Translations under genes and position numbers: made by a program
Source: Candidatus Methylomirabilales bacterium
Lineage (GTDB): Bacteria; Methylomirabilota; Methylomirabilia; Methylomirabilales; CSP1-5
Length of the DNA: 64,000 nucleotides
Reading direction: 5' to 3'
NCBI GenBank assembly: GCA_046758505.1
Contig: JBHIAH010000002.1
Coordinates: forward strand, 32,001 to 96,000
The notes under the pieces: model-generated
The model's database searches: none
Told to the model about the DNA's origin: nothing
What the model saw: the letters and a program-made list of their open reading frames with translations, nothing else
Shown: positions 20,624 to 37,571 of the stretch, piece after piece
Layout: each line of letters starts with the position of its first letter
How positions within the stretch are numbered: the first letter of the stretch is position 1

Positions 20624-20805
20624 ATTTCGAATTGCGAATTTCGGATTTCGGATTGAAATGCAGATCTCAGGTTCAGCACTTCGAAATCCGCAATCCCAAA
20701 TCCGAAATCCCGGAGGCGATTTGCTGATTGCTGACCGCTGACTGCTGACGGCCGACCGCTACGGGCTCGCAAGCTGTCTCATCGGTCGTCGGTCACCGGT
20801 CGTCG
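20624..20805. repeat. Two adjacent inverted arrays of heptamer repeats
   Basis: ATT[T/G]CG[A/G] x4 (20624-20651) pairs with CCGAAAT-like x4 (20681-20708). GCTGAC[C/T/G]-like x5 (20723-20757) pairs with TCGGTC[G/A]-like x3 (20782-20802). Confidence 0.8.
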
Positions 20806-22262
20806 CGGCGCGAAAGCGCCCGGCCGCGGGCCAGCCCATACAGCCACTCGTACTCCCTGGCAGCGTGCTCCCAAGAAAAGTGGCATGCCATGGCGTTCTG
20901 CATGAGGCACTTCCAGAGCTCCTTCCGGTGGAAAAGGGTGAGTGCCTCCCGGACGGCCTGCAAGAGATCCTCGGTCCCGGCCTGCCGGAAGGTAAACCCG
21001 TTTCCCGTGCGCGCCGCGGGATCAAAGGGGGTGATGGTGTCGCCCAGCCCCCCGGTGTCCCGGACGACGGGAATCGTGCCGTAGGCGAGACTGTACATCT
21101 GGGTCAGTCCGCAGGGTTCATACCGGGACGGCATGAGAAAGATGTCGGCCCCCGCCTCGATCTTATGACTCATGGCGACATCCAGGCCGATCCGCACTGC
21201 AAGCTTGGTGGGAAATTTCCGCTGCAACTCCTGGAGCCTCCGCTCGAGCTTCACGTCCCCCGTCCCCAGCAGGACCATCTGGAGATCGAGGCGCAACAGA
21301 TCCTCCCCCACCCCGGCGATGAGGTCGATGCCCTTCTGATCCACGAGCCGTGAGATCACGCCCACGAGGGGCAGCTCTGCCCGGGTCGGCAGTCCCATGA
21401 TCTCCTGAATGTCCACTTTACAGGCCGCCTTTCCCGTCAGATCGTCCGCGGAATACGCGGCCACGAGATAGGGATCGGCCCGAGGGTTCCACTCGTGATA
21501 GTCCACGCCATTCAGCACGCCGTAGAGATCCGCCGCCCGGCGCCGGGGGAGGTCCTGGAGGCCGCACCCGAACTCGGCCGTCTGAATCTCCTGGCTGTAT
21601 GTGCGACTGACGGTGCTGAGCAGGTCGGCGCACACCAGGCCGGCCTTCAGGAAATTCACCCTGCCCCAAAATTCCATCCCGTCGAGCGTAAACAGGGGAT
21701 CGGGCAGGCCGGTGAGGGGGAACACGTCGGCCGGAAAGAGTCCCTGGTATCCCAGGTTGTGGATCGTGAGCACGCTGGCGATATCCGCAAAAAAAAGATC
21801 CCTCCCGTAGACCGTCTTCAGGTAGGCCGGGATGAGGCTGCTCTGCCAGTCGTGGCAGTGGATCACGTCGGGCTTCCAGTTGAGGACCCTGACCGCTTCC
21901 AGCATGCCCCGGGAGAAAAAGATGAACCGTTCGGCGTTGTCGGGATAATCCTCTCCGTGCTCCTGGTACAAACCCTCCCGGTCATAAAATCGCTCATGAT
22001 CGATTAGGATGACGCGCACCCCCTCACTGTGTGTTTCCCAGAGGCAAGCTGCCTCCGTCCGATCTCCCAGGGGGACTTCGATTCCCTCCGGACGACGCGC
22101 CAGGGCATATTTCTCGGCGTCGATGGCCCCGTATTTGGGGAGAAACGCCGTCACCCGATGCCCCCGCCCCGCCAGGACGGCCGGAAGGGCCCCGGCGACG
22201 TCGGCCAATCCCCCCGTCTTGGCAAAGGGGGTCATCTCCGATGCAGCCGAGACGATCCGCAC
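20793..22262 (-). CDS. glgA: Glycogen synthase
   Basis: KTGGLADV, HCHDWQ, TIHNLGYQG and PSRYEPCGLTQM motifs; likely GTG start at 22262. Confidence 0.95.
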   Translation of the reverse strand: MRIVSAASEMTPFAKTGGLADVAGALPAVLAGRGHRVTAFLPKYGAIDAEKYALARRPEGIEVPLGDRTEAACLWETHSEGVRVILIDHERFYDREGLYQEHGEDYPDNAERFIFFSRGMLEAVRVLNWKPDVIHCHDWQSSLIPAYLKTVYGRDLFFADIASVLTIHNLGYQGLFPADVFPLTGLPDPLFTLDGMEFWGRVNFLKAGLVCADLLSTVSRTYSQEIQTAEFGCGLQDLPRRRAADLYGVLNGVDYHEWNPRADPYLVAAYSADDLTGKAACKVDIQEIMGLPTRAELPLVGVISRLVDQKGIDLIAGVGEDLLRLDLQMVLLGTGDVKLERRLQELQRKFPTKLAVRIGLDVAMSHKIEAGADIFLMPSRYEPCGLTQMYSLAYGTIPVVRDTGGLGDTITPFDPAARTGNGFTFRQAGTEDLLQAVREALTLFHRKELWKCLMQNAMACHFSWEHAAREYEWLYGLARGRALSRRDDR

Positions 22263-22322
22263 GCTCTTCTCCGGAAAAAAGGAACGGGGATCACACTTCC
22301 GATCCCCGTCCGACAATGCTGC

Positions 22323-22351
22323 TTTATATCGTGCACCCCCACCCCTGTCAA
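22323..22351 (-). promoter_or_regulatory. Sigma70 promoter of glgA
   Basis: TTGACA-17-TATAAA. Confidence 0.6.
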
Positions 22352-22366
22352 GGTGAAAGGCCGAAT

Positions 22367-22383
22367 TGCCTATGCAGTGGGCA
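22367..22383 (+). promoter_or_regulatory. NtrC-box-like enhancer site
   Basis: 17-bp TGCCTATGCAGTGGGCA (TGC-N11-GCA) about 120 bp upstream of the sigma54 site. Confidence 0.35.
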
Positions 22384-22500
22384 CCCCGTTCTCGCGGGCG
22401 GGCTCTGTGCTCTCTTTTTAGGCGATTTCGGTCCGGCCTGGTTCGCCCCCATTCGCACCTTTCTCCGTAATAGCAGCGAGTTACCGTTCTTCACCTCCAC

Positions 22501-22516
22501 TGGCATGGCGGATGCT
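22501..22516 (+). promoter_or_regulatory. Sigma54 (-24/-12) promoter of the amt operon
   Basis: TGGCAT-GGCGG-ATGCT with GG-N10-GC spacing, about 90 bp before the amt start. Confidence 0.6.
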
Positions 22517-22607
22517 TCTCTTCGCGCCGACCACAAGCGACCGTTGTGCGATGGTGGGGGAATCCTTGATTGAACGCCTCAGGGGAACGTAGAAGGGAGG
22601 AGAAACT

Positions 22608-24497
22608 GTGACGCGGAAGAGAGCGCTCTACAGCGTGGGTCTTGCCGCTCTGGTGGTGATTCTGGTTCCGGGGATCGCCCTCGCCCAGCAGGCGGCGCCC
22701 ACCATCGACACCCTGCTGAAGGACGTGACCAGCCTCAAGGTCGACTCCAAGGTGGCCATGGACACGGTGTGGACCCTGATCACCGCCTTTCTCGTCATGT
22801 TCATGGCCGCAGGGTTCGCCCTGCTCGAGTCCGGATTTTGCCGTTCGAAAAACACCGCCAACATCCTGGCGAAGAATTTTGTGGTGTATGCCGTCACGGG
22901 CATCGCCTTCTTAGTCATCGGCTGGGGGATTATGTTCGGCGACGGCACCGGCTTTATGGGTCTGAAGGGGCTCTGGTTCCTCAGCGGTCCCGACAACAGC
23001 CCGGCCACCGGAGACGCCTATAAGGGGGTCTACAGCTCTATCAACTGGACCGGGATCCCGCTCGAGGCCAAGTTCCTCTTCCAGATGGTCTTTGCCGCGA
23101 CCGCCGCGACGATCGTCTCGGGGGCCGTGGCCGAGCGGGTCAAGTTCGGCGCCTTCTTTCTCTTTTCCTTTCTCATCGGCGGCCTGCTCTACCCGATCAC
23201 CGGTCACTGGATCTGGGGAGGGGGCTGGCTCGCCGAGCGCGGGATGTGGGACTTTGCGGGTTCCACCGTGGTCCACTCGGTCGGCGGCTGGGCCGCCCTC
23301 GCCGGCGCCATCATGCTGGGACCGCGCATCGGCAAGTATACGAAGGACGGACGGATCAACCCCATCCCCGGCCACAGCCTCACCTCCGCGACGCTTGGCG
23401 TCTTTATCCTCTGGTTTGGCTGGTTCGGATTCAACCCGGGCAGCACTATGGGGGCGGATTGGGGGGCCATCGGCCACATCGCCGCCACCACGAACACCGC
23501 CGCGGCCGCGGGGGTGATCAGCGCCACGTTCACCGCCTGGGTCCTCCTCGGCAAGCCGGACCTCACCATGGCCCTGAACGGGGGGGTAGCCGGCCTGGTG
23601 GCGATTACGGCGCCGTGTGCCTTCGTCAGCCTGGGAAGCTCGCTGGCGATCGGCCTTGTGGCCGGGATCCTCGTGGTCCTGTCGGTCCTCTTCTTCGACC
23701 GCATCAAGGTGGACGATCCGGTGGGCGCGATCTCTGCCCACCTGGCGTGCGGGGCATGGGGCACTCTCGCCCTTGGGCTCTTTGCGCAGGACAAGTTCAT
23801 GCCGGGCACCACCGGCAACGGCCTGTTCTTCGGGGGCGGTTCGGGGCTCTTCCAGGCGCAGCTCATCGGGGTGCTCGCTGTGGGCGCATTCATCTTCCCG
23901 GCCTCCATGGTCGGCTGGGGGCTCCTGAAGGGATTCATGGGCATTCGGGTTGGCCCGGAGGAGGAGATGGAGGGCCTGGACATCAACGAGCACGGACTTC
24001 TCGCCTATCCGGACTTTCAGATCGCCACGGCGGCTCGCATGCCCCGGGGTGCGGTGACGGCGGCAGCGCCGGCGACACCGGCCCCCGAGGCGGCGGAGCC
24101 CGTGCGGCGCCCCGCCGCGGCCTTTGCCGGTGCGGGCGGCGGAGTGCGGACCCCGCCCCGCCCCGGTGCGTCACGCACGCCACCCGGCCCGGGCCACGCC
24201 CCCCCCGCCCGCGGAGCGCCTGTCGCCGCGGCCGGACCCGCCCTCAAAGAACAACCGTTCAGGATCGTGGTCCGGGGGGTGGAGAAGAAGGCCCTGCGGG
24301 AGCTATGGCAGCGTCTCTGCTACGAATATCCCCACAACACGCCACAGGACTTCAACGAGATCTACGGATACGTGCAGAGCTTTCGGGACGATGCCTTCTC
24401 TTTCAAGGAGGGGGATCCGAAGCAGTTCCGAGATACGATCGAAAACCTTTTGTACATCCACGGCATCGAAGGGGCCGTGGTCACGGCAGAGCGCTGA
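22608..24497 (+). CDS. amtB: Ammonium transporter (Amt) with Pro/Ala linker and an extra ~80-aa C-terminal domain
   Basis: GFALLESG, FQMVFA...IVSGAVAER, DFAGSTVVH, WFGFNPGS and DDPVGAISAH (twin His); signal peptide; 629 aa. Confidence 0.93.
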   Translation: MTRKRALYSVGLAALVVILVPGIALAQQAAPTIDTLLKDVTSLKVDSKVAMDTVWTLITAFLVMFMAAGFALLESGFCRSKNTANILAKNFVVYAVTGIAFLVIGWGIMFGDGTGFMGLKGLWFLSGPDNSPATGDAYKGVYSSINWTGIPLEAKFLFQMVFAATAATIVSGAVAERVKFGAFFLFSFLIGGLLYPITGHWIWGGGWLAERGMWDFAGSTVVHSVGGWAALAGAIMLGPRIGKYTKDGRINPIPGHSLTSATLGVFILWFGWFGFNPGSTMGADWGAIGHIAATTNTAAAAGVISATFTAWVLLGKPDLTMALNGGVAGLVAITAPCAFVSLGSSLAIGLVAGILVVLSVLFFDRIKVDDPVGAISAHLACGAWGTLALGLFAQDKFMPGTTGNGLFFGGGSGLFQAQLIGVLAVGAFIFPASMVGWGLLKGFMGIRVGPEEEMEGLDINEHGLLAYPDFQIATAARMPRGAVTAAAPATPAPEAAEPVRRPAAAFAGAGGGVRTPPRPGASRTPPGPGHAPPARGAPVAAAGPALKEQPFRIVVRGVEKKALRELWQRLCYEYPHNTPQDFNEIYGYVQSFRDDAFSFKEGDPKQFRDTIENLLYIHGIEGAVVTAER

Positions 24498-24528
24498 TCC
24501 CGAAAGAGAGGCCGGGGAGGAGAGAGAA

Positions 24529-26139
24529 ATGATTGGATGGATCATTCTGATCGGTATCCTCGCAGCAGTGATCATCGCGGCATTTACCGCCTGGTACGTC
24601 AAGACGCCGGTAAACAACGCCTTCATCCGGACCGGCTTCGGTGGCAAGAAGGTGGTCATCGACGGCGGCGCGGTCGTATTGCCCTGGGTCCAAAGCATTC
24701 AGTGGATTTCCCTCGAGACCTTCAAGCTCCAGGTCTTCAAGGCGAAGAAAGAGGCCTTCATCACCAAGGACCGCCTGCGGGTGGACCTCGGGGCTGAATT
24801 CTACGTGAAGATCTCAGCCGACCCGGAGAGCATCGAACGGGCCTCCCGCAGCTTGGGGGATAAGTCCTTCAGCGCCGAGGGGATCCAGTCCCTCGTGGAG
24901 GAGAAGCTGGTCTCGGCGCTGCGGTCGGCGGCAGCCCAGATGGAGATGGTTTATATGCACGAGAATCGCCGCGGCTTCGCCCTCAGCGTCATGGAACATC
25001 TTGGAGAACCGTTGATGCTCAACGGGCTTGGACTCGAGGATGTTTCAATCTTCCACTTCGACCAGACCGACCGGGCCCAGCTCGATCCTCACAACATCTT
25101 CGACGCCGAGGGCCTCCGCCAGATCGCCGCCCAGGTCTCCCAGCGCAACCGAGAGCGGAATGAGATCGAACGGAACACCGAGGTGGGCATCAAGCGCAAG
25201 GATGTGGAGGCGGTCAAGCTCAAACTCTCGCTCGACCAGGATCGGGAATTCGCCGAGGCCGAGCAGATGCGCCAGGTGGACACCAACCGGTCCCTCCAGA
25301 AGGCCGAGACCGAACAGTACAAGTTCGAGCAGGACCGGCGAACCCGGGAGGCGGAAATCGCCAAGCAGCGTGCCGTCCGGGAGGCAGAGATCGTGCAGGA
25401 GAAGGCGGTGCGCGAGGCAGAGATCCGCCGCGAAGCGTACCTGATTCAGCAGATGGAGCTCCGCGAGACGGCCGAGGTGGAAAAGGAGCGGGTGGTCGAG
25501 GAGACAAAACGGGCCAAAGAGATCGCCATCCTGGTCAAGGAGCGACAGCGGATCGAGGAGGAGAAGCGGCGGCTGGAGGCCGAGGCCGTCAAGGAGCTGT
25601 CGGCCCAGGAGGTGGTGACGGTGGCCGAAAAGGCCTCGGCCGAGCGCCAGAAGGTCATCGCCCTCATCCAGGCCCTCCGGGAAGTCGAGGTGGCCGAGCA
25701 AAAAGCCCGCGCGGTCGAACGACTGGCGCTCTCCAAACAGCGGGAGGGCGAGGCCGACGCAGCCGCCCGTTTGAAGATGGTAGAGACCGAGAACCACCTC
25801 CAGGACAAGGTCATTCAGCGGGATGTCCTGCTGCGCTTTATCGACAGGGCGCCCCAGATCTTGGGCGAGATGATGGCCCCGGCCCGGCAGATCGACAGCA
25901 TCAAGGTCTTGGACGTTCGGGGCTTGGGCGGCAACGGCGAGGGGGCAGGCCCAGACGTCTCCGGCATCAGTCGCGTGGTGAACTCCTTCCTCAACGCCGG
26001 GGCCGCGCTGCCGCTCCTCAGGGAATTTCTGGACTTCGCCAAGATGGATCCGGAAGGCATGCTCAAGAAGGTGGCGGCGCAGATCCCCGGAGCCAAGGAG
26101 GCCGTCGAGCCGCCATCAGCGAAGGGATCGGGGAAATAA
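24529..26139 (+). CDS. SPFH/flotillin-family protein (YqiK-like)
   Basis: N-terminal TM; FIRTGFGG...VIDGG, ITKDRLRVD and NIFDAEGL motifs; long E/R/A coiled coil; ARQIDSIKVL; ATG at 24529 follows GGAGG. Confidence 0.88.
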   Translation: MIGWIILIGILAAVIIAAFTAWYVKTPVNNAFIRTGFGGKKVVIDGGAVVLPWVQSIQWISLETFKLQVFKAKKEAFITKDRLRVDLGAEFYVKISADPESIERASRSLGDKSFSAEGIQSLVEEKLVSALRSAAAQMEMVYMHENRRGFALSVMEHLGEPLMLNGLGLEDVSIFHFDQTDRAQLDPHNIFDAEGLRQIAAQVSQRNRERNEIERNTEVGIKRKDVEAVKLKLSLDQDREFAEAEQMRQVDTNRSLQKAETEQYKFEQDRRTREAEIAKQRAVREAEIVQEKAVREAEIRREAYLIQQMELRETAEVEKERVVEETKRAKEIAILVKERQRIEEEKRRLEAEAVKELSAQEVVTVAEKASAERQKVIALIQALREVEVAEQKARAVERLALSKQREGEADAAARLKMVETENHLQDKVIQRDVLLRFIDRAPQILGEMMAPARQIDSIKVLDVRGLGGNGEGAGPDVSGISRVVNSFLNAGAALPLLREFLDFAKMDPEGMLKKVAAQIPGAKEAVEPPSAKGSGK

Positions 26140-26143
26140 GGTC

Positions 26144-26767
26144 GTGTCGTATCGCCTCCTGCTCATAGAGGAGAGCTCCTCTGCCCTGACCTTCCTCCAG
26201 GAGACGCTCCGACGGCTCGGCTATGCGGTGGTCGGCGAGGCTACCCATGGCCAGCAGGGACTCCAACTGACCCGAACCCTCCAACCCGATCTGATATTTT
26301 TGGCGGTGGATCTGCAGGGGGTCTGTGGCCTCACCGTCGCAACCCAGATCATGAAGGAGACCCCCACACCCATCATCCTCCTGGCCTGCACCCGGGATGC
26401 CACCACAATCCGTCGGGCCACCCAGGCGGGGGTGATGGCCTACCTGATCAAGCCAATACGTGGGCACGAGCTCCAGGCCACCATCGAGCTGGCCATTGCC
26501 AGGTTCCGGGAGTTCATGACGCTCTGGAAGGACAACCAGCACCTGCGGAGGGCCTTGGAGGCGCGCAAGGCGATCGAACGCGCCAAGGGGTTGCTCATGG
26601 CCCGCCACGGGATGACCGAGGCAGAGGCCTTCAGCTCGATCCAGCGACAGAGCATGAAGACTCGAACCCCCATGGAACAAGTCGCCGAGGCCATTCTGGT
26701 CGGGGAGGCAGTCGCGGCGGCTGCAACGGATCCACGTCCCGCGGCATCTTCGCAACCGGGACCCTAG
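26144..26767 (+). CDS. ANTAR-domain RNA-binding antiterminator with pseudo-receiver domain (AmiR/NasT-like)
   Basis: ANTAR motif LEARKAIERAKGLLM...EAEAF...QSM. The receiver has Ala54 where the phospho-Asp is expected (PDLIFLA). Confidence 0.9.
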   Translation: MSYRLLLIEESSSALTFLQETLRRLGYAVVGEATHGQQGLQLTRTLQPDLIFLAVDLQGVCGLTVATQIMKETPTPIILLACTRDATTIRRATQAGVMAYLIKPIRGHELQATIELAIARFREFMTLWKDNQHLRRALEARKAIERAKGLLMARHGMTEAEAFSSIQRQSMKTRTPMEQVAEAILVGEAVAAAATDPRPAASSQPGP

Positions 26768-26889
26768 CGGAGCCAGCACAGAGCTCTGACCGTCACGAGA
26801 GGGAAACACCCGACGAATCCGAAAGACTTCGATGGCACCGGTGAGGGTCTCGCGTGCGCCGGTGCCCCGACACGCGCGGAGGTTCCGGT

Positions 26890-26929
26890 CGCTGCAACGG
26901 CGCAGCGGCGGGAGAGGCAAGGGCGCCTC
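26890..26929 (+). promoter_or_regulatory. ANTAR target RNA (dual hexaloop hairpins)
   Basis: P1 CGCTGC-AACGGC-GCAGCG, 6-nt linker, P2 GAGGC-AAGGGC-GCCTC. Both loops have A1/G4 and a C-G closing pair. Confidence 0.88.
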
Positions 26930-26955
26930 ACAGAGGAGGCGCCCTTGTGTTTTTT
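26918..26955 (+). terminator. Intrinsic terminator overlapping ANTAR hairpin P2
   Basis: CAAGGGCGCCTC-ACAGAG-GAGGCGCCCTTG (12-bp perfect stem) followed by TGTTTTTT. Confidence 0.88.
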
Positions 26956-27025
26956 CGTGACACAGACCGAGATGACCGGCACCGTGGGAAGCGAGTACAA
27001 CCTGTACGAAAAAGGAGACGGTGAC

Positions 27026-27919
27026 ATGCCACACACACGGTGGAGACGCATGGCTCTCGTGGCTAGTGCGGTGGGGCTAGCCGGCTTTTTCTATGGGACG
27101 GCGGCGGTCCAGGCGGGAGAAGCCACAGGGCAAAACACGGGGAGGATCTCGCTCAATGCCGGGGTGGATTTTCCCACAGCCTACTTCTTCCGCGGCATCC
27201 TGCAGGAGGACGAGGACTTCATCGCCCAACCATTCGGGGAAATCACGGTTAACCTGTATGAAGGGACGGGAGGACTGACCAGCGTCAGCGCGACGCTGGG
27301 CTTGTGGAATAGCCTGCACTCAGGCCCGACCGGCGGAGGCGGGCCGACCGACAACCCGAAGATATGGTACGAAGCCGATGCGTATGGGGGACTGACGTTC
27401 GGGCTGTTCGAAAACTGGGAAGCGGGAGTGACCTACATCGCCTACACCAGCCCCAACGATTCCTTTGACACGGTTCAAGAGGTGTACCTGAGCCTCGGCT
27501 ATGACGACAGCGACCTGTTGGGTCCCTTTGCGCTGTCTCCGCACGTCCTTGTCGCCTTCGAGTTCGATAATCAGGCGGATGGGGGGAGCGACGAGGGCAT
27601 TTATGTGGAGCTGGGTGTCGAACCAGGCCTCACCCTCATCAAAAGCGAGCAATTCCCGGTGACCCTCTCATTTCCGATCACCCTCGGCTTGAGCGCCGAT
27701 GACTATTACGAGTTCGGCACTGGCGACGATAGCACCTTCGGGTACTTTGACGGGGGTATCGTCCTGAGCATGCCGTTGGGGTTCATTCCCGCCGCCTTCG
27801 GCACCTGGGAGATCAATGCCGGGGTACACTTCCTCGCCCTCGGGGACAACCTCGAAACGGTGAACAGTGGCGACGCCTTTGAGGCCATCGGCACGTTCGG
27901 CATCAGCCTGGCCTACTGA
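27026..27919 (+). CDS. TorF-like putative outer-membrane porin
   Basis: Signal peptide ending AVQA; AYFFRGI...Q and YEADAYGG motifs; alternating beta-strand pattern; C-terminal aromatic residue (GISLAY); AAGGAG RBS. Confidence 0.72.
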   Translation: MPHTRWRRMALVASAVGLAGFFYGTAAVQAGEATGQNTGRISLNAGVDFPTAYFFRGILQEDEDFIAQPFGEITVNLYEGTGGLTSVSATLGLWNSLHSGPTGGGGPTDNPKIWYEADAYGGLTFGLFENWEAGVTYIAYTSPNDSFDTVQEVYLSLGYDDSDLLGPFALSPHVLVAFEFDNQADGGSDEGIYVELGVEPGLTLIKSEQFPVTLSFPITLGLSADDYYEFGTGDDSTFGYFDGGIVLSMPLGFIPAAFGTWEINAGVHFLALGDNLETVNSGDAFEAIGTFGISLAY

Positions 27920-27928
27920 GGGATACAC

Positions 27929-28075
27929 GCTGGGAAGCTAGGAGGCTAGGATGCGAGGAGGCTGGAACGCAAAAAGGCGGGAAGGATTCAATGAAGAGAA
28001 GCTGCGACTTTGGAATGCTGAGAAGCTCTTTTGGATGTACGGCCTTCCAGCTTCCTAGCGTCCCAGCATCCTCGC
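27929..28075. repeat. Inverted arrays of octamer repeats
   Basis: GCTGGGAA GCTAGGAG GCTAGGAT GCGAGGAG GCTGGAAC (27929-27968) versus CTTCCAGC TTCCTAGC GTCCCAGC ATCCTCGC (28044-28075). Confidence 0.75.
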
Positions 28076-28083
28076 AGGATCGG

Positions 28084-28161
28084 TGGCGGGGCCGACGGGA
28101 CTTGAACCCGCGATCTCCGGCTTGACAGGCCGGCGTGTTAACCAGGCTACACCACGGCCCC
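28084..28161 (-). tRNA. tRNA-Asp(GUC)
   Basis: Cloverleaf with acceptor GGGGCCG/CGGCCCC, anticodon arm CCGGC-CTGTCAA-GCCGG, T loop TTCAAGT and encoded CCA. Confidence 0.97.
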
Positions 28162-28186
28162 GCAACTCTCTATTATAGATGAATCC

Positions 28187-28249
28187 GAACCCGCGATCTT
28201 CCCGATTGCCCATCGGGACGGGGTCACCAGGCTACACCACGGCCCCGCA
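28187..28249 (-). pseudogene. Degenerate partial copy of tRNA-Asp
   Basis: 24-nt identity 28226-28249 vs 28141-28164 and 13-nt identity 28187-28199 vs 28104-28116. The anticodon arm is replaced and the 3' acceptor strand is absent. Confidence 0.75.
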
Positions 28250-28267
28250 GAAGGGAACGACTGTAAA

Positions 28268-28296
28268 TCTATAGCGCACCTGGCGAGGGAAGTCAA
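28268..28296 (-). promoter_or_regulatory. Sigma70 promoter for the tRNA-Asp locus
   Basis: TTGACT-17-TATAGA, with the -35 overlapping the treT stop codon. Confidence 0.45.
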
Positions 28297-29525
28297 CTAA
28301 AGGGAAGGATCTCCATCTCCGGCGATCCCCCCGTCAGCGCCGCCATCAGCGTCAGATAGTCCGTCAGGTGGCGGGTGATGAGGAAATTGCGCCGGACGTG
28401 TTCCTTGGCGTCCGCGCCCATCTTTCGAGCGACCTTCGGGTTGTTCAGGAGATACCGGATCCGGAATGCCGCTCCCTCCACCGAACTCACGGTGTAGCCG
28501 GTCAGATAGTAGAGGATCTGGACGGTGATGCCCCCGGCGTCACCCCCAATGACCGGCTTTCCCTTCCACATGGCCTCGGAGACCGTCAGGCCGAACCCCT
28601 CCTTGATCGACTTCTGAAGGATAATGCTGGCCGCCCGCTGCAGGGCGTTGATCTCGAGATTCGCATCCGGCGGGAGCTCCAGGATGTGGATGTCCGGGTC
28701 CTGGCCGGCGACCTCCGTCACCTCTTCCACGACCGCCCTCCCTTCCGGGTCATCGGCCGCCCGGCTTCCTGCCAGTACTAGACGACAATCATTGTGCTTC
28801 TTGACGATCCGGTAGGCCTGGATCACCCCCACGGGGTCTTTGAAGTGGTCAAAACGGGAGACCTGCACCAGGATCGGCTTATCCTGGGGAACGCCCAACG
28901 TATTCAGGATCTTGGTCACCTCCCGTCGGCTGAGCTCCCGGTTCTTGTCGCTCAACGGATCGATCGAGGGATAGACGAGAAACTGGGGGATGGAAAGCTT
29001 CTGGGCAAAGGTGGGCAGGGAGAAGATGGCCGCGTCGTACTTCACCACGTAGTTTCTCAGGAAGCGCCACACCCGGCGCGCCGGGTGAGAGATGTCCAGA
29101 TGACACCGCCAGACCCATTTCCCCACGCGCGGGCCATAGTCGATGAGGGCGGCCGGCTGGGGATCGTGGACCAAGATCATGTCGGCATCAAAAAGCAGCC
29201 GCTTGGCGTTCTCGCGATTACACTCGAGATACGCGCGGTACAACCGTTCGCTGATCTCCCGTTCCCGGCCCTGGAGGGCGTTGTGAAAAGCCTTGGTCAC
29301 CGCGAAGAATTCGTCGCTTCCCTGGATAACCTCCCACGTGGCCTTGACCCCAAGTTCGTTGAGCAGGGGGACGAGACGGTTCAGCATCTCGGCCACACCA
29401 CCGCCGAACCGGGTCGAGTTGATATTGAGGAGACTCCTCCCCTTCACCTTTTCGCTCAGGCGATAGAGAAGATCCACCGACCCCGGGGGGGCAACCTCCC
29501 GATAATCCTCAAGGCGAATCGACAC
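28293..29525 (-). CDS. treT: Trehalose synthase, glycosyltransferring (GT4)
   Basis: NSTRFGGGVAE, HDPQP, WRCHLD, QVSRFDHFKDP and EGFGLTVSEAMWKGKPVIG motifs. Confidence 0.9.
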   Translation of the reverse strand: MSIRLEDYREVAPPGSVDLLYRLSEKVKGRSLLNINSTRFGGGVAEMLNRLVPLLNELGVKATWEVIQGSDEFFAVTKAFHNALQGREREISERLYRAYLECNRENAKRLLFDADMILVHDPQPAALIDYGPRVGKWVWRCHLDISHPARRVWRFLRNYVVKYDAAIFSLPTFAQKLSIPQFLVYPSIDPLSDKNRELSRREVTKILNTLGVPQDKPILVQVSRFDHFKDPVGVIQAYRIVKKHNDCRLVLAGSRAADDPEGRAVVEEVTEVAGQDPDIHILELPPDANLEINALQRAASIILQKSIKEGFGLTVSEAMWKGKPVIGGDAGGITVQILYYLTGYTVSSVEGAAFRIRYLLNNPKVARKMGADAKEHVRRNFLITRHLTDYLTLMAALTGGSPEMEILPFS

Positions 29526-30195
29526 CGCTCTCCCCTCCCTCGATCAGGAACGTATCGCAAATCTCCACGAGACGGTCCCGGAGTTGTTCCAGGCTGAACA
29601 TGTATGGGTCAATGGTTCGGAGGCATTGGGCCAGCTCCACCATCTGCAATTCCCGCTCGATCCAGATGGGGAAATCTCCTTCCCGACCGTTCCGCCGGAT
29701 CCGCGCCGCGTAGAAGTGGTAGTAGATGGCACTGGCGTCCACCTTGGAGAGTCCGTCCCGAAATTCCTGAAGCGTCTGCGCGATGATCCCGGTGGGAATC
29801 TCTACAATGCGAGACTGCATGAAGTAAAAGGGCTTTCCATCTTCGACCCGGGGGACAAAACTTAATGTGGCAAGGTGATCTTCAATGACGGCGACGAGGG
29901 CGTCACGCAGATCGTCCAGCGTGTTGAAGTCGTACGGATCGATGACCCCCAGCCGTTCCCCCAGTACTCGATCGCGAACCTGCGTGGCCGCCCAGGTCGC
30001 AAAATCGTTGGGGTAGGGGGCTGCGAGGTACTGATGTCGGAGGAAGTACTGATGCGTATGATAGTAAATGGAGTCGATGGGCACCTCCTCCAAGAGATCC
30101 ATGAGCTGGAGCTCATCCTCCGCCTTTGTCCCCAGGATCTCCCGGAGCTCCGTGCACCCGACGAATTCAAAGGGGAACCCGACGATCTTATGCAT
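29509..30195 (-). CDS. DUF5752-like TreT-associated protein
   Basis: Internal duplication SIYYHTH...NDFATW / AIYYHFY...DFPIWI; overlaps the treT start. Confidence 0.75.
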   Translation of the reverse strand: MHKIVGFPFEFVGCTELREILGTKAEDELQLMDLLEEVPIDSIYYHTHQYFLRHQYLAAPYPNDFATWAATQVRDRVLGERLGVIDPYDFNTLDDLRDALVAVIEDHLATLSFVPRVEDGKPFYFMQSRIVEIPTGIIAQTLQEFRDGLSKVDASAIYYHFYAARIRRNGREGDFPIWIERELQMVELAQCLRTIDPYMFSLEQLRDRLVEICDTFLIEGGESGVDSP

Positions 30196-30429
30196 GGGAG
30201 ACGCTCACGTTCGGTGTCCCTCCACTCCCCAAGGAATGCAACTGTCCACCAAGGTCAGATGGTACAGCAATACCTTCTACACCACTATCATTTGAAAGTC
30301 CACTGTCTCGGAATCCCGCAGCCATCAGGGGCACATCCTTCCTCCAGAGTGGAACGCGCGCTCGCCTCGGTCCCATCGTCCTCCGCTCGCCAGCCATGGC
30401 ACCTTTCGCCCACCACTCCTGCCGGCACC

Positions 30430-32427
30430 TTAGAGAGAGTCCTCAGAGTCCCGTTCCTTGCGGATCCGGCGCCGTACGCCGAACACATGAGCCGGAACGT
30501 TCTGCGGATTGAGCTCGACGTAATTGCGCGGGCCGTGCCAGAGGTAGCGGGCGTCGTTGATCAGATCATGCACTTGGTAGGGATGTTCGTGATCGAGCCC
30601 CAGCGCGTCGAGGTCAACCTCTACCCAGCCCGTATGCGTCTGATGGGGGCTCAGATTGACCACGACCAGGATCATGTTCGCCCGATCTTCCGTACTCTTG
30701 CTGTAACAGAGAAGCTGGTCGTTGTCCACGGAATGAAAACGCAGACCGCCATTGCTGTGCAGTGCAGGGTTTTCCCGACGAATCCGGTTCACCCGGGCGA
30801 TCAATTCGCGCAGGCTGTCCGGTCGGGAGATGTCCCAGTATTTGATTTCGTACTTTTCCGAGTTGAGATATTCTTCGCCCCCGGGCTCCCGGGGCCGGTT
30901 CTCGCAGAGTTCAAAGGCGGGACCGTAGATTCCGTAACTCGCCGCCAGGGTGGCCGCCAAGACCAGCCGCGTCATGAAGGCCGGCCGCCCTCCGGACTGC
31001 AGATACTCGGGCAAGATATCGGGTGTATTCGGCCACAGACTGGGCCGGAAATACTCTCGCACGTCTGTCTGGGTGAGCTCGGTGAAGTATTCGGAGAGTT
31101 CCCACTTGGTGTTGCGCCACGCGAAATACGTATACGACTGGGTGAAGCCAAGCTTGGCGAGTTCGTACATCACCTTCGGGCGGGTGAAAGCCTCGGCGAG
31201 AAAGATCACGTCGGGATGGTCCGCCTTGATCCCGTCGATCAGCCACTGCCAAAAGGCAAAGGGCTTGGTGTGGGGATTGTCCACCCGGAAGATCCGCACA
31301 CCCTCGTCGATCCAGAAGTAAAAGATGCTCCTGAGTTCCTCCCAAAATTCGCGCCACGCTTCGGTCTCAAATTCGAAGGGGTAGATGTCCTCGTACTTTT
31401 TGGGCGGGTTCTCCGCGTACTGGACGGTGCCATCGGGGCGCCACCGGAACCACTCCGGATGCTCCTTCACATAGGGATGATCGGGTGAACACTGGAAGGC
31501 GATGTCTAATGCGATCTCGAGACCGTAGTCGCGAGCCTTTGCAAGGAACCGTCGGAAATCCTCCCGAGTCCCGAGCTGGGGATGAATCGCCTTGTGCCCG
31601 CCCTCCTCGGCGCCGATGCCCCAGGGGCTCCCCGGATCATCGGGCTCGCAAATGGGAGAGTTATTCTTCCCCTTGCGGTGCGTGCGGCCGATGGGATGGA
31701 TGGGGGGGAAATAGAGCACGTCAAAGCCCATGTCTGCAATGTACGGCAACCGCTGCTCACAATCCCTGAAGGTCCCGTGGACGCCCGGCTTCGGACCACA
31801 AGAGCGGGGAAACATTTCGTACCAGGCACTGAACCGGGCCCGTTCCCGATCAACGACCACGACGAGCTCCTTGCCGTATCTGGTGGCCAGCCGCCTGTCG
31901 GGGTACAGCGCCATCAACTGGGCCAGATCCTCAGCCAGCGCCAGGCGGATCTTCTCGGATGGGTTCGACGGGAAGTCCGAACGCAGGGCCGTGGCTCTCT
32001 CCTTCAGCTTTGTGGCATCCGCCCCGGAAGCCCGCCCACTCGCCTCCTCGACCAAGTCGGCCCCCACCAGGAGGTCGACCTCCACCTCCTGGCCCGCCTC
32101 GACCTTCCTTCCCAGGTCCCGCCGCCAGGTTCTGAACCGATCGACCCAGGCTTCAAGGGTATACCGGTACCGCCCGAGCTCCGTCACACGAAACTCTGCG
32201 CGCCATCGGTCGTTCACCACGAACTCAAGGGGGACCTCACTCCAATTCTTAGCTGTCTCCCGGCGGTAGCGGAGTACGCCCGAGAGCGCGTCGAGCCCTT
32301 CAGCGAAAATATCCACCTCCACGACAACCTTTTCACCGACCGTCCGCTTGATGGGGAAACGCCCCCCATCAATCTCGGGCTTGACCCCCTCGATAATTAC
32401 CCGTCCGGGCCATTCGTCGACACGCAC
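30430..32427 (-). CDS. glgE: Alpha-1,4-glucan:maltose-1-phosphate maltosyltransferase
   Basis: WYEMFPRS, ENPPKKYEDI, FRVDNPHTKP and NTPDIL motifs. Confidence 0.95.
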   Translation of the reverse strand: MRVDEWPGRVIIEGVKPEIDGGRFPIKRTVGEKVVVEVDIFAEGLDALSGVLRYRRETAKNWSEVPLEFVVNDRWRAEFRVTELGRYRYTLEAWVDRFRTWRRDLGRKVEAGQEVEVDLLVGADLVEEASGRASGADATKLKERATALRSDFPSNPSEKIRLALAEDLAQLMALYPDRRLATRYGKELVVVVDRERARFSAWYEMFPRSCGPKPGVHGTFRDCEQRLPYIADMGFDVLYFPPIHPIGRTHRKGKNNSPICEPDDPGSPWGIGAEEGGHKAIHPQLGTREDFRRFLAKARDYGLEIALDIAFQCSPDHPYVKEHPEWFRWRPDGTVQYAENPPKKYEDIYPFEFETEAWREFWEELRSIFYFWIDEGVRIFRVDNPHTKPFAFWQWLIDGIKADHPDVIFLAEAFTRPKVMYELAKLGFTQSYTYFAWRNTKWELSEYFTELTQTDVREYFRPSLWPNTPDILPEYLQSGGRPAFMTRLVLAATLAASYGIYGPAFELCENRPREPGGEEYLNSEKYEIKYWDISRPDSLRELIARVNRIRRENPALHSNGGLRFHSVDNDQLLCYSKSTEDRANMILVVVNLSPHQTHTGWVEVDLDALGLDHEHPYQVHDLINDARYLWHGPRNYVELNPQNVPAHVFGVRRRIRKERDSEDSL

Positions 32428-32455
32428 CTACGCGACCCCCTCCTCTCTCAATGTT

Positions 32456-35365
32456 TCAGTGCCCTGGCGCGACATCACTCATTGTCCCCGAAATCAGGGC
32501 AAGCGGAAAATGTTGAAAGAGGCGGTGGAGGGGCAACGCCTTCCTCCCGGAACTCGAGGAGACGTGCAAGGTCTCGCCGGTCAGGATGTTCTGCCAACGC
32601 GCCGGCGCCTCGCGAGGTACCACGAGACACCCATTGCCCCACACCCGCCGTCCCAGGGGCGGTTTGCCATTTCCCACGAGCCTCGCAATGAGCCGGGGGA
32701 CAACTACCAAAGCCCACGCGCCCGCGTTCCGCCTCGCAAAGCTGCACACGTGTTCCTTTTTGTTGCCCAGAGCGTACAGGGGGAGGTAGTCTCCCTCCAG
32801 AAACAGCGCGCGGTGTTCCCGGCGAAAATCCAGCGCCCTGGCGGTGACAAAAAGTTTGATTCGGCCATCGTCCCAGCGCAGAAGTAACTCAGAGACCAAG
32901 GGCACGAGACCCTCGGCTTCTCGGCGCTTGAGATCCTCGAGCAGTCGGATTCGTTTCGTGAAATCGACGGGGCGACGGTTGTCGGGATCGACGAGACTGA
33001 AGTCCCAGAGTCCCGTGCCCTGATAAAAATCAGGGACGCCCGGCGACGTGATTTTGAGGAGCACCTGTGCCACGGCATTCAAGGCACCGTGGAAGGCGAT
33101 CCGTTTCTGGAACTGTACAAAGTCCAAGAGGAATCTGTTCTGACGCGACGTCCTCAAGATCGACTGCACAAAGGCGACGAGGGCGCGCTCATGAGCTGGG
33201 TCAGAATCGATCCAGCTCGTGTAGACTTTTGCCTCTCTCGCTGCCTTGATCATGAAAGCCTCGAGCCGCTTCTTGAACGCGGGTACCTCATCCGCCCGGA
33301 AGGGCCACGCCCCGACGAGCGTCTGGTACAGAAGCATTTCCTCGTTGAGATCCGGGACAGATCGTCCGTTGACCTTTCGTTTGTTCGCCCGATTCCACCG
33401 GTTCCAGCGGGTTACGCACTGCGCCCACACTTGGGGAAGCTCAGAGAGGACATTGATTCGCGCCCGAACATCTTCGCTCCGCTTGGTGTCGTGCGTGGAC
33501 GTCGCGTTCAGGGTATACGGCCAGTCCGCCCGGGTGGCACGGTTATGACGGTGAAAGTCCTTCACAGATACATGCTGAGCCCCAGGATCGCCCCCCACTT
33601 CGTTCAGGGAGATCAGCCGGTTGTACGTATAGAGGGAGGTATCCTCGAGCCCCTTGGCCATAATCGGGCCCGTGAACTGCTGCCATCGCCTCACAAAGCA
33701 AAGCCAAGCCTCTCTCTGTTCTGCGGCGAGGGAAGGCGGAAAATCGAGGAGGAAGACCCGACGCAGAAAGTCGAAGACGGGCGTGCCGAGAGCCGCATTC
33801 CGTCGCATGGCCTCCTCCGCAGCCCGTGTGATGACCGTGCGGTCCTGCGGAGGCACCTCGTGACCGCGAATATAGGTCCGGTAGACAGGGAGGCACGCGG
33901 TGACCTCCACGAGGCCTTGCAAAAGGGTCTGCCGCGGGAGGTCGCGCGCGTGCCGATCCTGCCCGGCCAGGCGGGAGAGGGAGTGGCCGAGGGTTCGCAT
34001 CTCCCCCGGAAACAACGCCTCCATAATCCACTTCTTCTGCCGATAGACGATATCTGGAAAGCCCATCCGGGACCCGGTAAAACGCGTGTAATACGCGTCG
34101 AGCGGCTTGATCCCGACCGGGTCCACGGAAACCCCATTCACGCGAATGGCAAACTCATAGCCCGTGGTGCCACACACCGGCCAATCCTTGGGTAGTGTTT
34201 CATCTCCGATGAGGATCTTTTCGACCAGGACATAAAAGCTCGGGGACGCTCCCTGCTCACTTGCCTCCGGGGCCAGACGGCCCTGGAGACGATGGAGATA
34301 CCCTGGGGGGTCGTACAACCCGTCAATATGATCAGTCCGCAAGCCGGTCACCTTCCGATCCTTGACCAGCTCGAAGATCAACCTGTGCGTGGCCTTGAAT
34401 ACCTGCATGTCCTCGACCCGAACACTGACCAGGTCACTAATGTCGAAAAACCGCCTGTAGTTCATGCACTCCCTGGCGGTTCGCCAAAAACCAAGCCGGT
34501 AGGCCTGCTGGGCCAAGAGTTGGTCCAGGAGATCAAAGCTGTGGGGAGAGCCCCTCTCGCCGTTGAAAATCCTCACATTTTCATCGAGAAAGGTTTTGAT
34601 CTCGGGATACGTCAGGTACAGGTGCCAAAGCCGGTGCTTGATACGCTCCCGCTCCCGCTCCGTCTCCCCCGTCACGCGATCGCCCACGGTGCCCACCGGC
34701 AGCCGCTGGATCGCGTCGAGGAGATCAACCAGCGCGCGAAAGGCCAAGTGGGCCATCCCGAGCGTCTCCTCCATGGTGTGCATGCGGTGCGCGAGAATAG
34801 ACCGATAGGACTTGAGCTGAATCGGCAATTTCACGTTGTAGTAGCGAACATGAAACCCGCCCTCGTCGAGCCCCAAGACCAGCTCCTGCTTTTCCAAGAC
34901 CTGGCCGTACGGGCCGCCGAGGAGGGGGAGGAGGACTTTATCCGCGAGTGGCCCGCTGTCTGGGTGCCAGTCAATGTCAAAGTAGCTCGCGTACCGGGAA
35001 CTCGGGCCGTTCTCCAGCACATCCGTCCACCACGGGTTTTCAGGACTGGCAGCCATATGATTGGGCTCGATGTCCAGGAGAAGCCCCATCCCGTGACGCC
35101 TGAGCTCTTCCGACAGCAGATCGAATTCTTCCCGTGTGCCCAGCTCGGGGTTGAGGCGGGTCGGGTCCGTCACATCATACCCATGCGTGCTCCCCCGACG
35201 GACCTGGAAAATCGGAGAGGCATAGAGATCCGTGATGCCAAGCATCAGAAGATACGGCACGAGCCGCCGGGCGTCCGCAAAGCCAAAGTCCTGGTTGAAC
35301 TGCAGCCGATACGTGGCGCCCGGAACCCGAAATGTGACCTTTCCACTGTCTCCCTGCACACCCAT
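32456..35365 (-). CDS. treY: Maltooligosyl trehalose synthase
   Basis: ATYRLQF, HGYDVTD, NYRRFFD, DHIDGL and STHDTKRSED motifs. Confidence 0.95.
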   Translation of the reverse strand: MGVQGDSGKVTFRVPGATYRLQFNQDFGFADARRLVPYLLMLGITDLYASPIFQVRRGSTHGYDVTDPTRLNPELGTREEFDLLSEELRRHGMGLLLDIEPNHMAASPENPWWTDVLENGPSSRYASYFDIDWHPDSGPLADKVLLPLLGGPYGQVLEKQELVLGLDEGGFHVRYYNVKLPIQLKSYRSILAHRMHTMEETLGMAHLAFRALVDLLDAIQRLPVGTVGDRVTGETERERERIKHRLWHLYLTYPEIKTFLDENVRIFNGERGSPHSFDLLDQLLAQQAYRLGFWRTARECMNYRRFFDISDLVSVRVEDMQVFKATHRLIFELVKDRKVTGLRTDHIDGLYDPPGYLHRLQGRLAPEASEQGASPSFYVLVEKILIGDETLPKDWPVCGTTGYEFAIRVNGVSVDPVGIKPLDAYYTRFTGSRMGFPDIVYRQKKWIMEALFPGEMRTLGHSLSRLAGQDRHARDLPRQTLLQGLVEVTACLPVYRTYIRGHEVPPQDRTVITRAAEEAMRRNAALGTPVFDFLRRVFLLDFPPSLAAEQREAWLCFVRRWQQFTGPIMAKGLEDTSLYTYNRLISLNEVGGDPGAQHVSVKDFHRHNRATRADWPYTLNATSTHDTKRSEDVRARINVLSELPQVWAQCVTRWNRWNRANKRKVNGRSVPDLNEEMLLYQTLVGAWPFRADEVPAFKKRLEAFMIKAAREAKVYTSWIDSDPAHERALVAFVQSILRTSRQNRFLLDFVQFQKRIAFHGALNAVAQVLLKITSPGVPDFYQGTGLWDFSLVDPDNRRPVDFTKRIRLLEDLKRREAEGLVPLVSELLLRWDDGRIKLFVTARALDFRREHRALFLEGDYLPLYALGNKKEHVCSFARRNAGAWALVVVPRLIARLVGNGKPPLGRRVWGNGCLVVPREAPARWQNILTGETLHVSSSSGRKALPLHRLFQHFPLALISGTMSDVAPGH

Positions 35366-35368
35366 CCC

Positions 35369-37498
35369 TCAGTCGCCGACAAGGCGCAGCAACGCCACGG
35401 ATCGCCCCTGCAGGTCGTACGGCTGACCCCCACGCATCAGACGGTATCGTCGCCTTCCTACCGCATCCCGGGTGTCCAGGACCAGTTCCCACCGCAGTTT
35501 GGACCGCTGGATGGGAAGGACGAATACGATAGGTTCATGGTAGGCGTTGAGGAGGATCAGCAAGGTGTCATCGACGATGCGATTTCCCCGGGCATCAACC
35601 TCCTCGATGGCGTCCCCGGCAAGCCGGAGCCCCAAGCAACGGGTGTGGGAATTTTCCCAGTCCTCGTCGCCCATTTCCTTGCCATCGGGGCGGAACCAAG
35701 TCAGATCTTTGACCTCGGAGCCGCGGATCCTCCGCCCCTGGAAAAAGTTCCGACGCCGCAGGACCGGGTGCCGATGGTACAGCCGGATCAGGAGCCGAGT
35801 GAACTCGAGCAGCTCAAGCCGGGCTCGGTCTGGGCTCCAGTTTATCCAAGACGTCTCGTTGTCCTGACAATAGGCGTTGTTGTTCCCCTGCTGCGTACGC
35901 CCCATCTCGTCGCCAGCCAGGAGCATCGGAACACCCTGGGAAAGGAAGAGGGTTGCCAGCATGTTTCGTTTCTGCCGCTCTCGGAGGGCGAGGATCGCCG
36001 GATCATCTGTGGGCCCCTCCACGCCACAATTCCAGCTCAGGTTTTCGTCGGTGCCATCCCGGTTTCCCTCTCCGTTCGCCTCGTTATGTTTCCCGTTATA
36101 GCTCACCAGGTCGTGGAGGGTAAATCCATCATGGGCCGTCACAAAGTTGATGCTGGCATACGGCCGGCGGCCCCCATGATCGTAGAGATCGCTGCTTCCG
36201 GTCAGGCGGTAGGCCAGCTCACCGACCTGCCCCAGATCGCCCCTCCAGAAGCGTCTTACGTTATCGCGATATTTTCCATTCCATTCGGCCCACAGGACGG
36301 GAAAGTTGCCCACTTGGTAGCCCCCCTCGCCGAGGTCCCACGGCTCGGCGATCAGCTTCACCTGCGAGAGGATGGGGTCCTGGTGGATGATGTCGAAGAA
36401 CGCTGCCAACCGGTCCACCTCATGCAGTTCTCGCGCGAGGGCTGCGGCGAGATCGAAGCGAAACCCGTCCACGTGCATCTCCAGCACCCAGTACCGAAGG
36501 CTGTCCATAATCAGCTGGAGTACCCGTGGGTGGGTCATGTCCAAGGTATTCCCGCAACCGGTGTAGTCCATGTAGTAGCGGCGGGTGTCCCCCGCCAGGC
36601 GATAATAGGCTGCATTATCAATGCCGCGAAAGCAGAGGGTTGGTCCGAGATGGTTCCCCTCCCCCGTATGGTTGTACACTACATCGAGGATGACCTCGAT
36701 CCCCTCGCGGTGAAGCGTCTTGACCATGGTTTTAAACTCTGCCACCTGCTGGCCCAGAACCCCCGTGCTGGCATACCGCGCGCCGGGGGAGAAGAATCCG
36801 ATCGAGTTATAGCCCCAGTAGTTGGTAAGCCCCCGGTCCACAAGTTGTCGATCCGCCACGAACTGGTGCACCGGCAGCAGCTCCACCGCGGTGATCCCCA
36901 GCGACCGGAGATAGTCGAGGACCGGGGGGCAGGTGAGGCCAGCGTACGTCCCCTGCAGTTCCTTTGGGACGTTCGGGTGTTGGGCCGTAAACCCTTTTAC
37001 ATGCACTTCGTAGATGATTGTCTTGTGCCAGGGGATCCGCGGTGGCCGGTCCTCGCCCCAGGAGAAGGCCGGGTCGACCACCACGCACTTGGGAATGTCG
37101 GCGGCACTGTCTCGATTATCCCGAGAGCGATCCTCGGCCGGATCCCCGACACGGTATCCGAACAAAGCATCGCTCCAGTGGACGGTGCCGGCGATGGCTT
37201 TGGCATAGGGATCGATGAGGAGCTTAGCGGGATTGAATCGGTGGCCGGCCTCCGGCTCGTAGGGGCCATGCACCCGATACCCGTAGAGCTGCCCCGGGCG
37301 CGCCTCAGGAAGATAAACGTGCCAGACCTGATCGGTTTGCTCCTGCATCGGGATGCGGGCGATTTCCTGACCGCCGTCCGGCCTCCCGAACAGGCTCAGT
37401 TCCACCCCGGTGGCGTTCTCGGAAAAGAGGGTGAAGTTGACCCCGGCTCCGTCCCAGGTTGCCCCCAGCGGATAGGGATGTCCCGGCCACACCTTCAT
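35369..37498 (-). CDS. glgX: Glycogen debranching enzyme
   Basis: [28 protein letters not shown] and AHDGFTL motifs. Confidence 0.96.
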
Positions 37499-37571
37499 GA
37501 CGGCCTCCTACCGATGCGACCCTTACCCTGCCCGTCCACCCTGGAAAAGGACAGGGAAAATCGAAGCGGAT

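Follow-up and report, generated by a model that had tools for sequence, protein, structure and literature searches.

The window analyzed here, a stretch of 64,000 nucleotides, contains on its forward strand a unit that comprises, in order, a predicted sigma-54 promoter, genes for an ammonium transporter (amt), a flotillin and a REC-ANTAR antiterminator, an RNA element, the gene of a predicted outer-membrane beta-barrel and a convergent tRNA gene. Homologue names assign the genome to Methylomirabilota/NC10. The promoter of the operon (22500..22516) is predicted from a -24/-12 sequence motif with GG at 22502-03 and GC at 22514-15, and the same motif lies 5' of amt in G177, G016, G073 and G151; no sigma-70-like promoter was found in 22000-32000 and no internal promoter was seen between the ANTAR gene and the porin gene. 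The Amt protein (22608..24497; PF00909, E 4e-119; TIGR00836 above cutoff) carries a Pro/Ala-rich linker followed by a C-terminal domain of ∼85 amino acids (24230-24497) that belongs to no named family. A similar fold occurs in the structure atlas on an 810-aa Amt cluster that is commonest in Planctomycetota (TM 0.70), and the domain is found together with flotillin in five genomes (G000, G177, G016, G073 and G124). The flotillin/SPFH gene (24529..26139; PF01145, PF15975) is followed by the ANTAR gene (26144..26767; PF03861, PF00072), whose product has Ala54 at the phospho-acceptor position and so is a pseudo-receiver protein, by the barrel gene (27026..27919; assigned from a structure model, Foldseek and a weak TIGR02001 match) and by the tRNA gene (28087..28161, reverse strand; anticodon GUC, Asp; Rfam RF00005) that closes the unit. 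Between the porin stop codon and the tRNA (27925-28085) there is a long imperfect inverted repeat, REP-like, of -66 kcal/mol. The nitrogen unit is enclosed by a glycogen/trehalose cluster on the opposite strand (20793-22316 and 28293-41794), in which TreT-like and DUF5752 genes were named by Pfam and the remainder by inspection.

The initial annotation had placed between the ANTAR gene and the porin two hairpins with A1/G4 hexaloops and C-G closing pairs, 6 nt apart, the second of which was mutually exclusive with a 12-bp terminator and U-tract, and base-by-base inspection bears this description out with a small refinement of the terminator stem. The first hairpin, P1 (26890-26907), lies 122 nt from the ANTAR stop codon, directly after that gene as had been claimed, and has arms CGCTGC and GCAGCG around the loop AACGGC; its 6-bp core can be extended to 8 bp, and beyond that via a bulge. 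P2 (26914-26929) has 5 bp, with arms GAGGC and GCCTC around the loop AAGGGC, so that the P1-P2 linker measures 6 nt with the 6-bp P1 and would shrink to 4 nt with the 8-bp form. The predicted intrinsic terminator (26917-26955) draws on the P2 loop and the P2 3' arm and consists of a stem of 13 pairs (26917-26948; 12 Watson-Crick, 9 of the pairs being G-C, plus one G-U) and T6 at 26950-26955; the porin start codon, ATG at 27026, follows the end of the T-tract at a distance of 70 nt, again as annotated. Calculated folding energies are -26.7, -7.3 and -9.5 kcal/mol for the terminator, P2 and the P1 core, respectively, and the 181-nt region around the element folds with z = -3.1. P1 is compatible in these folds with both the P2 and the terminator state, and co-transcriptional folds form P2 first, with the terminator displacing it once the transcript passes about 26940-26943. 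The terminator loop ACAGAG also fits the A1/G4 pattern and was rejected as a further hexaloop since it is not conserved, and a 34-nt hairpin at ∼26835-26867, absent from G177 and G016, was left aside.

An Rfam search returned no family at the element. ANTAR elements are defined by hexanucleotide loops with A1/G4, stems of at least 3 bp and a terminator overlapping P2, with linkers of 5-12 nt in E. faecalis (PMC3369931); these loops and stems, the closing pair, the linker, the overlapping terminator and an ANTAR gene in the same genome are all found here. The EutV/eut system of Enterococcus faecalis (PMC3369931; 6wsh) shares with the present one the two A1/G4 hexaloops, the short linker, the exclusion between P2 and terminator and the REC-ANTAR regulator; EutV, however, needs phosphorylation by EutW and its targets are ethanolamine genes. 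Closer still in setting is GnfK/GnfR with the Gsul_0938-glnK-amtB leader of Geobacter sulfurreducens (PMC2995071, PMC3369931), which likewise combines a sigma-54 promoter with an ammonium-uptake context. The Geobacter P2, GGCAANGGCGCC, is near-identical to P2 here and is also fused to its terminator, and our P2 agrees with the GnfR consensus CAGGCAANGGCGCC (PMC2995071) except at its first base, which is G. GnfK phosphorylates GnfR; our regulator, by contrast, carries Ala in place of the acceptor Asp, and the search for a HisKA_2 kinase gave no close match; moreover, unlike in Geobacter, the switch is internal to the operon, the porin stands alone behind it and the regulon has one site.

In order to gauge how rare such an arrangement is, the whole genome (96.8% complete) was scanned for further dual-hexaloop sites, as the initial annotation had proposed. 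A strict scan gave 16 pairs, and a terminator overlaps the hairpins in this pair alone. With the criteria relaxed to P2 plus terminator, 93 loose matches came up, with a compact terminator and a canonical P1 in this site only, and a covariance model, with 150 of 4323 candidates scored, returned nothing beyond this site and its antisense shadow. On contig C11, where glnK-glnA is preceded by a sigma-54-like motif, the element was not found. The one ANTAR gene found in the genome lies directly upstream of the only element found. A comparable strict match occurred in one of 40 shuffled 64-kb windows and the exact pattern, defined post hoc, in none of 100 shuffles; the pattern alone is therefore rare, though possible by chance, and it is context and conservation that decide in favor of a real element.

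We aligned the element with nine orthologous ones from relatives. Across these ten sequences the terminator is 97.3% paired, and in 4 of the 11 core pairs both partners change, counts of covariation that are overstated because the aligned genomes are kin; none of 500 shuffles equaled the pairing or the covariation score. One such change involves position 5 of the P2 loop, where four genomes have A:U instead of G:C, so that the loop reads AAGGAC and the 3' arm of the terminator is altered to match. P2 is nearly invariant, its three inner pairs being identical in 10/10; P1 varies, with the canonical C-G closing pair in 6/10 and loop position 1 sometimes G. Covariation at the antiterminator pairs is no higher than in shuffles (86/500). 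A match to a sigma-54 promoter that overlaps P1 in G016 was taken as coincidence. Among 14 genomes searched within the genus, six have an Ala-type ANTAR protein, and every one of these carries the element in full. So does G059, a genome 96% complete, in which an Ala-type ANTAR was not found with the query used. In G073 and G033 the ANTAR gene is missing at the locus, and there the terminator is kept, P1 is lost and P2 is eroded. That the hairpins decay where the gene has been lost implies selection on them where it is kept. The ANTAR antitermination architecture claimed for the locus is hence supported in its sequence-level features, which are conserved with compensatory changes, and we conclude that the element very probably works as an ANTAR attenuator.

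Of 61 genomes of the order, 18 gave a match to the covariance model; 10 of the 18 had been used to train it and 2 appear to be chance matches. The layout seen here recurs in G177 and G016. In G112 and G151 the ANTAR gene and the element are followed by glnK, amt and a porin of the same family, in G043 the element precedes glnK-amt-BBP2, and in G104 and G203 the order is ANTAR-element-BBP2 porin (PF07642); elements also stand before glnK (G124, G170) and before a nitrite/sulfite reductase gene (G045). The arrangement seen here, with the porin as sole target, has probably arisen by trimming of the element-glnK-amt-porin layout that relatives keep. In five further loci (L064 of G162, L232, L233, L237 and L238) there is a single P2-like hexaloop with no obvious terminator, near the start of a porin or urea-type binding protein gene; possibly these lone loops serve translational control by ANTAR proteins.

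The product of 27026..27919 is a predicted outer-membrane beta-barrel and candidate channel, and it is the only gene product encoded between the switch and the convergent tRNA, in keeping with the initial annotation. Its structure model is nearly all beta (pLDDT 83), an antiparallel barrel whose best Foldseek matches are an E. coli porin, OmpG, NanC and PcoB (E about 1e-6); the N-terminus is hydrophobic and signal-peptide-like by eye, and the C-terminal residue is an aromatic, Tyr. No Pfam match was obtained, and TIGR02001 (Gcw_chp/TorF) scores 22.5 bits, below its cutoff of 47.15. The atlas cluster of the protein is Gcw_chp (score 0.96), a family present on 47% of the cluster members. The protein resembles Gcw_chp/TorF (TIGR02001, PF09694) in size, weak profile match and predicted barrel, but differs in falling below the TIGR02001 cutoff and lacking a Pfam match, so that it may be called at most a distant relative. 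The Gcw_chp/TorF family is associated with glnK-amtB operons. A literature search on TIGR02001/Gcw_chp/TorF gave nothing relevant among the matches listed. The porin family here was found in 32 of 201 genomes of the phylum, whereas a search of genome contigs for related loci with the porin as query confirmed none; its substrate is inferred from gene context only.

An outer-membrane porin as the target of such a switch had been thought unusual. This is not supported, because porins stand behind the same element in relatives, where it heads glnK-amt-porin in three genomes of the genus (one with BBP2) and BBP2 directly in two others, and because there is a parallel in Geobacter. We scanned named genomes for P2 plus terminator and examined 80 of more than 119 loci, with downstream ORFs identified by inspection. 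Genes 3' of these elements include nitrite reductase (in pseudomonads), nifH, amt and glnA, and in four Geobacteraceae loci and one other bacterium the first gene encodes a protein of ∼250 amino acids with a signal peptide, followed by glnK in 4 of the 5 (none within 1.3 kb in Geomonas paludis). For the ∼250-aa protein of Geomobilimonas luticola the model (pLDDT 87.5) is a barrel with some 12 beta-strands, and its structural matches include porins. One locus, L270, carries the Gsul_0938 promoter printed in the supplement of PMC2995071, and there P1, P2 and the terminator are followed by a protein 63% identical to the modeled barrel, then by glnK and the start of amtB. The first gene behind a published promoter is thus a predicted beta-barrel. 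It was entered as 'hypothetical' in the GnfR regulon (PMC2995071; PMC3369931, Table S2), and GSU0938 has been treated as RpoN-dependent (PMC2725144); the word porin is absent from the text and supplements examined of PMC3369931 and occurs once in the PMC2995071 text. On the strength of the barrel model, the porin target here is one with a published yet unrecognized parallel. The Gsul_0938-type family (L270, L096, L108, L128, L145), with 2716 homologues and no Pfam match, is predicted to form a beta-barrel of some 12 strands in the outer membrane. It has no profile similarity to the barrel here (hhalign probability 0.9%), and a broad porin profile matched only one of the 80 loci with an element, which sets the Geobacteraceae barrels apart as a separate family. 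The slot would then be filled by at least three families of barrels, Gcw_chp-like, BBP2 and GSU0938-like, as sequence profiles and structure models have it. In two Nitrospirota-type genomes (L106:2262-3362 and L126:1020-2177) P2 and a terminator lie 5' of genes for a molybdopterin-oxidoreductase/PII fusion, PII and a transporter.

The regulator aligns best, among solved structures, with PdtaR (1s8n) and EutV (6wsh; E 9e-49). Its gene is intact and its RNA-binding region is conserved; the phospho-acceptor Asp at the end of beta-3 is replaced by Ala54, and Ala occupies this position in 29 of the 30 best phylum matches. A tree separates Asp-type from Ala-type ANTAR proteins, with group counts disregarded because two Asp and two Gly proteins carried the Ala label. 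Relatives have an additional, Asp-type ANTAR paralogue adjoining a HisKA_2 kinase. No such paralogue was found in this genome, nor a close match to that kinase, there being two weak matches (E 3e-7 and 1e-6) and many other kinases. In the same genus (L057, L059, L060, L061 and L063) the Asp-type paralogue has a terminator and a P2-like hairpin of its own 3' of the gene, in which C takes the place of A as the first loop base (CATGAC or CACGAC). Searches that returned no paper joining Methylomirabil- with the ANTAR domain, and none joining the ANTAR domain, GlnK and an ammonium transporter, had a coverage that takes in few subscription journals.

Taken together, we think it likely, from sequence and gene order, that an ANTAR two-hairpin leader stops the predicted sigma-54-driven amt-flotillin-ANTAR transcript before the predicted porin unless the ANTAR protein binds. 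On nitrogen shortage an NtrC-like activator would fire the promoter at 22500; Amt, flotillin and the ANTAR protein would be produced first, with the terminator halting the transcript ahead of the porin. The ANTAR protein would then bind both loops and keep P2 closed, leading to readthrough. As it is not phosphorylatable at the usual residue and no inhibitor was found, it would most likely be active once it has accumulated and dimerized, a step that rests on no partner having been found. The porin would in this way be added as a delayed, thresholded step, easing the entry of ammonium or another small nitrogen solute.

Control by amount is the simplest model, and control by a partner or ligand is nearly as likely. 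Concerning the signal step only, we give somewhat less than an even chance to the same switch with a pseudo-receiver ANTAR protein that is inactive until nitrogen is short and is gated by PII (GlnK), by the C-terminal domain of Amt with flotillin as its scaffold, or by glutamine or 2-oxoglutarate. The retained Ala and an AVGLP motif conserved in Ala-type ANTAR proteins suggest a retained surface function. There is also precedent in the literature: the pseudo-receiver AmiR (PMC2995071) and NasS-bound NasT (PMC3795266) are controlled by partner sequestration, NasT being constitutively active without its inhibitor NasS (PMC3795266), and Pseudomonas NasT binds c-di-GMP via residues not conserved outside the genus (PMC10783516). 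NasS/NasT (Paracoccus, Pseudomonas) and AmiC/AmiR share with the present system a REC-ANTAR antiterminator, nitrogen genes and the loop type, and AmiR in addition control without receiver phosphorylation (PMC2995071). They differ, however, in that the best structural matches here are PdtaR and EutV and no cytoplasmic NasS/AmiC-like partner was identified in the genome in searches with PF13379 and PF13433; the one PF13379 and five PF13433 ORFs all look exported, with signal-like N-termini by eye, and no NasS/AmiC equivalent is therefore identified. The order amt (with the domain)-flotillin-ANTAR does recur, in G000, G177 and G016 and also in G124, of another family. Yet the Ala clade is widespread beside amt, glnA or glnK where neither the Amt domain nor flotillin occurs, so the domain cannot be a general sensor; as a candidate for that role it was rejected, since it tracks flotillin and not ANTAR, G073 having both with no ANTAR gene at the locus.

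The hairpins might instead be vestigial, next to a plain leaky terminator that fixes a low ratio of porin to upstream gene products. The terminators retained by G073 and G033 after loss of P1 and of the ANTAR gene at the locus fit this account, as does a terminator 19 kcal/mol more stable than P2, and in those two genomes, with a terminator but no P1 before the porin, there may be some readthrough or another promoter. Here, however, neither hairpin departs from the canonical form and the ANTAR gene has been kept intact, and the decay of hairpins with loss of the gene makes the vestigial account unlikely. Binding of the hairpins to control porin translation, as described for actinobacterial ANTAR RNAs and in line with the distant relative G162, which has its P2 near a porin start and no terminator, is highly improbable at this locus, where some 60 nt separate the T-tract from the ribosome binding site AAGGAG, which is not overlapped, and a strong terminator overlaps P2.

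The attenuator reading leaves the switch a clean, ordinary case of a known mechanism in an uncultured phylum; what would be new is an uncharacterized pseudo-receiver clade together with interchangeable nitrogen-regulated barrels. As a one-protein, one-site system it should be simple to rebuild in a reporter for learning how the regulator is controlled. More speculatively, and at rather low confidence, a phylum-wide clade of non-phosphorylatable REC-ANTAR proteins may read nitrogen by an undescribed route, with neither kinase nor NasS/AmiC and perhaps by way of PII or, in this lineage, of the C-terminal domain of Amt and a flotillin scaffold, and may gate a channel slot filled interchangeably by three barrel families. 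That genes of these families recur first or alone after ANTAR terminators, in clusters for ammonium uptake, points to a role as nitrogen-scavenging channels, and were the proposal true the Gcw_chp-like, BBP2 and GSU0938-like families would gain a testable role as channels for ammonium or small amines.
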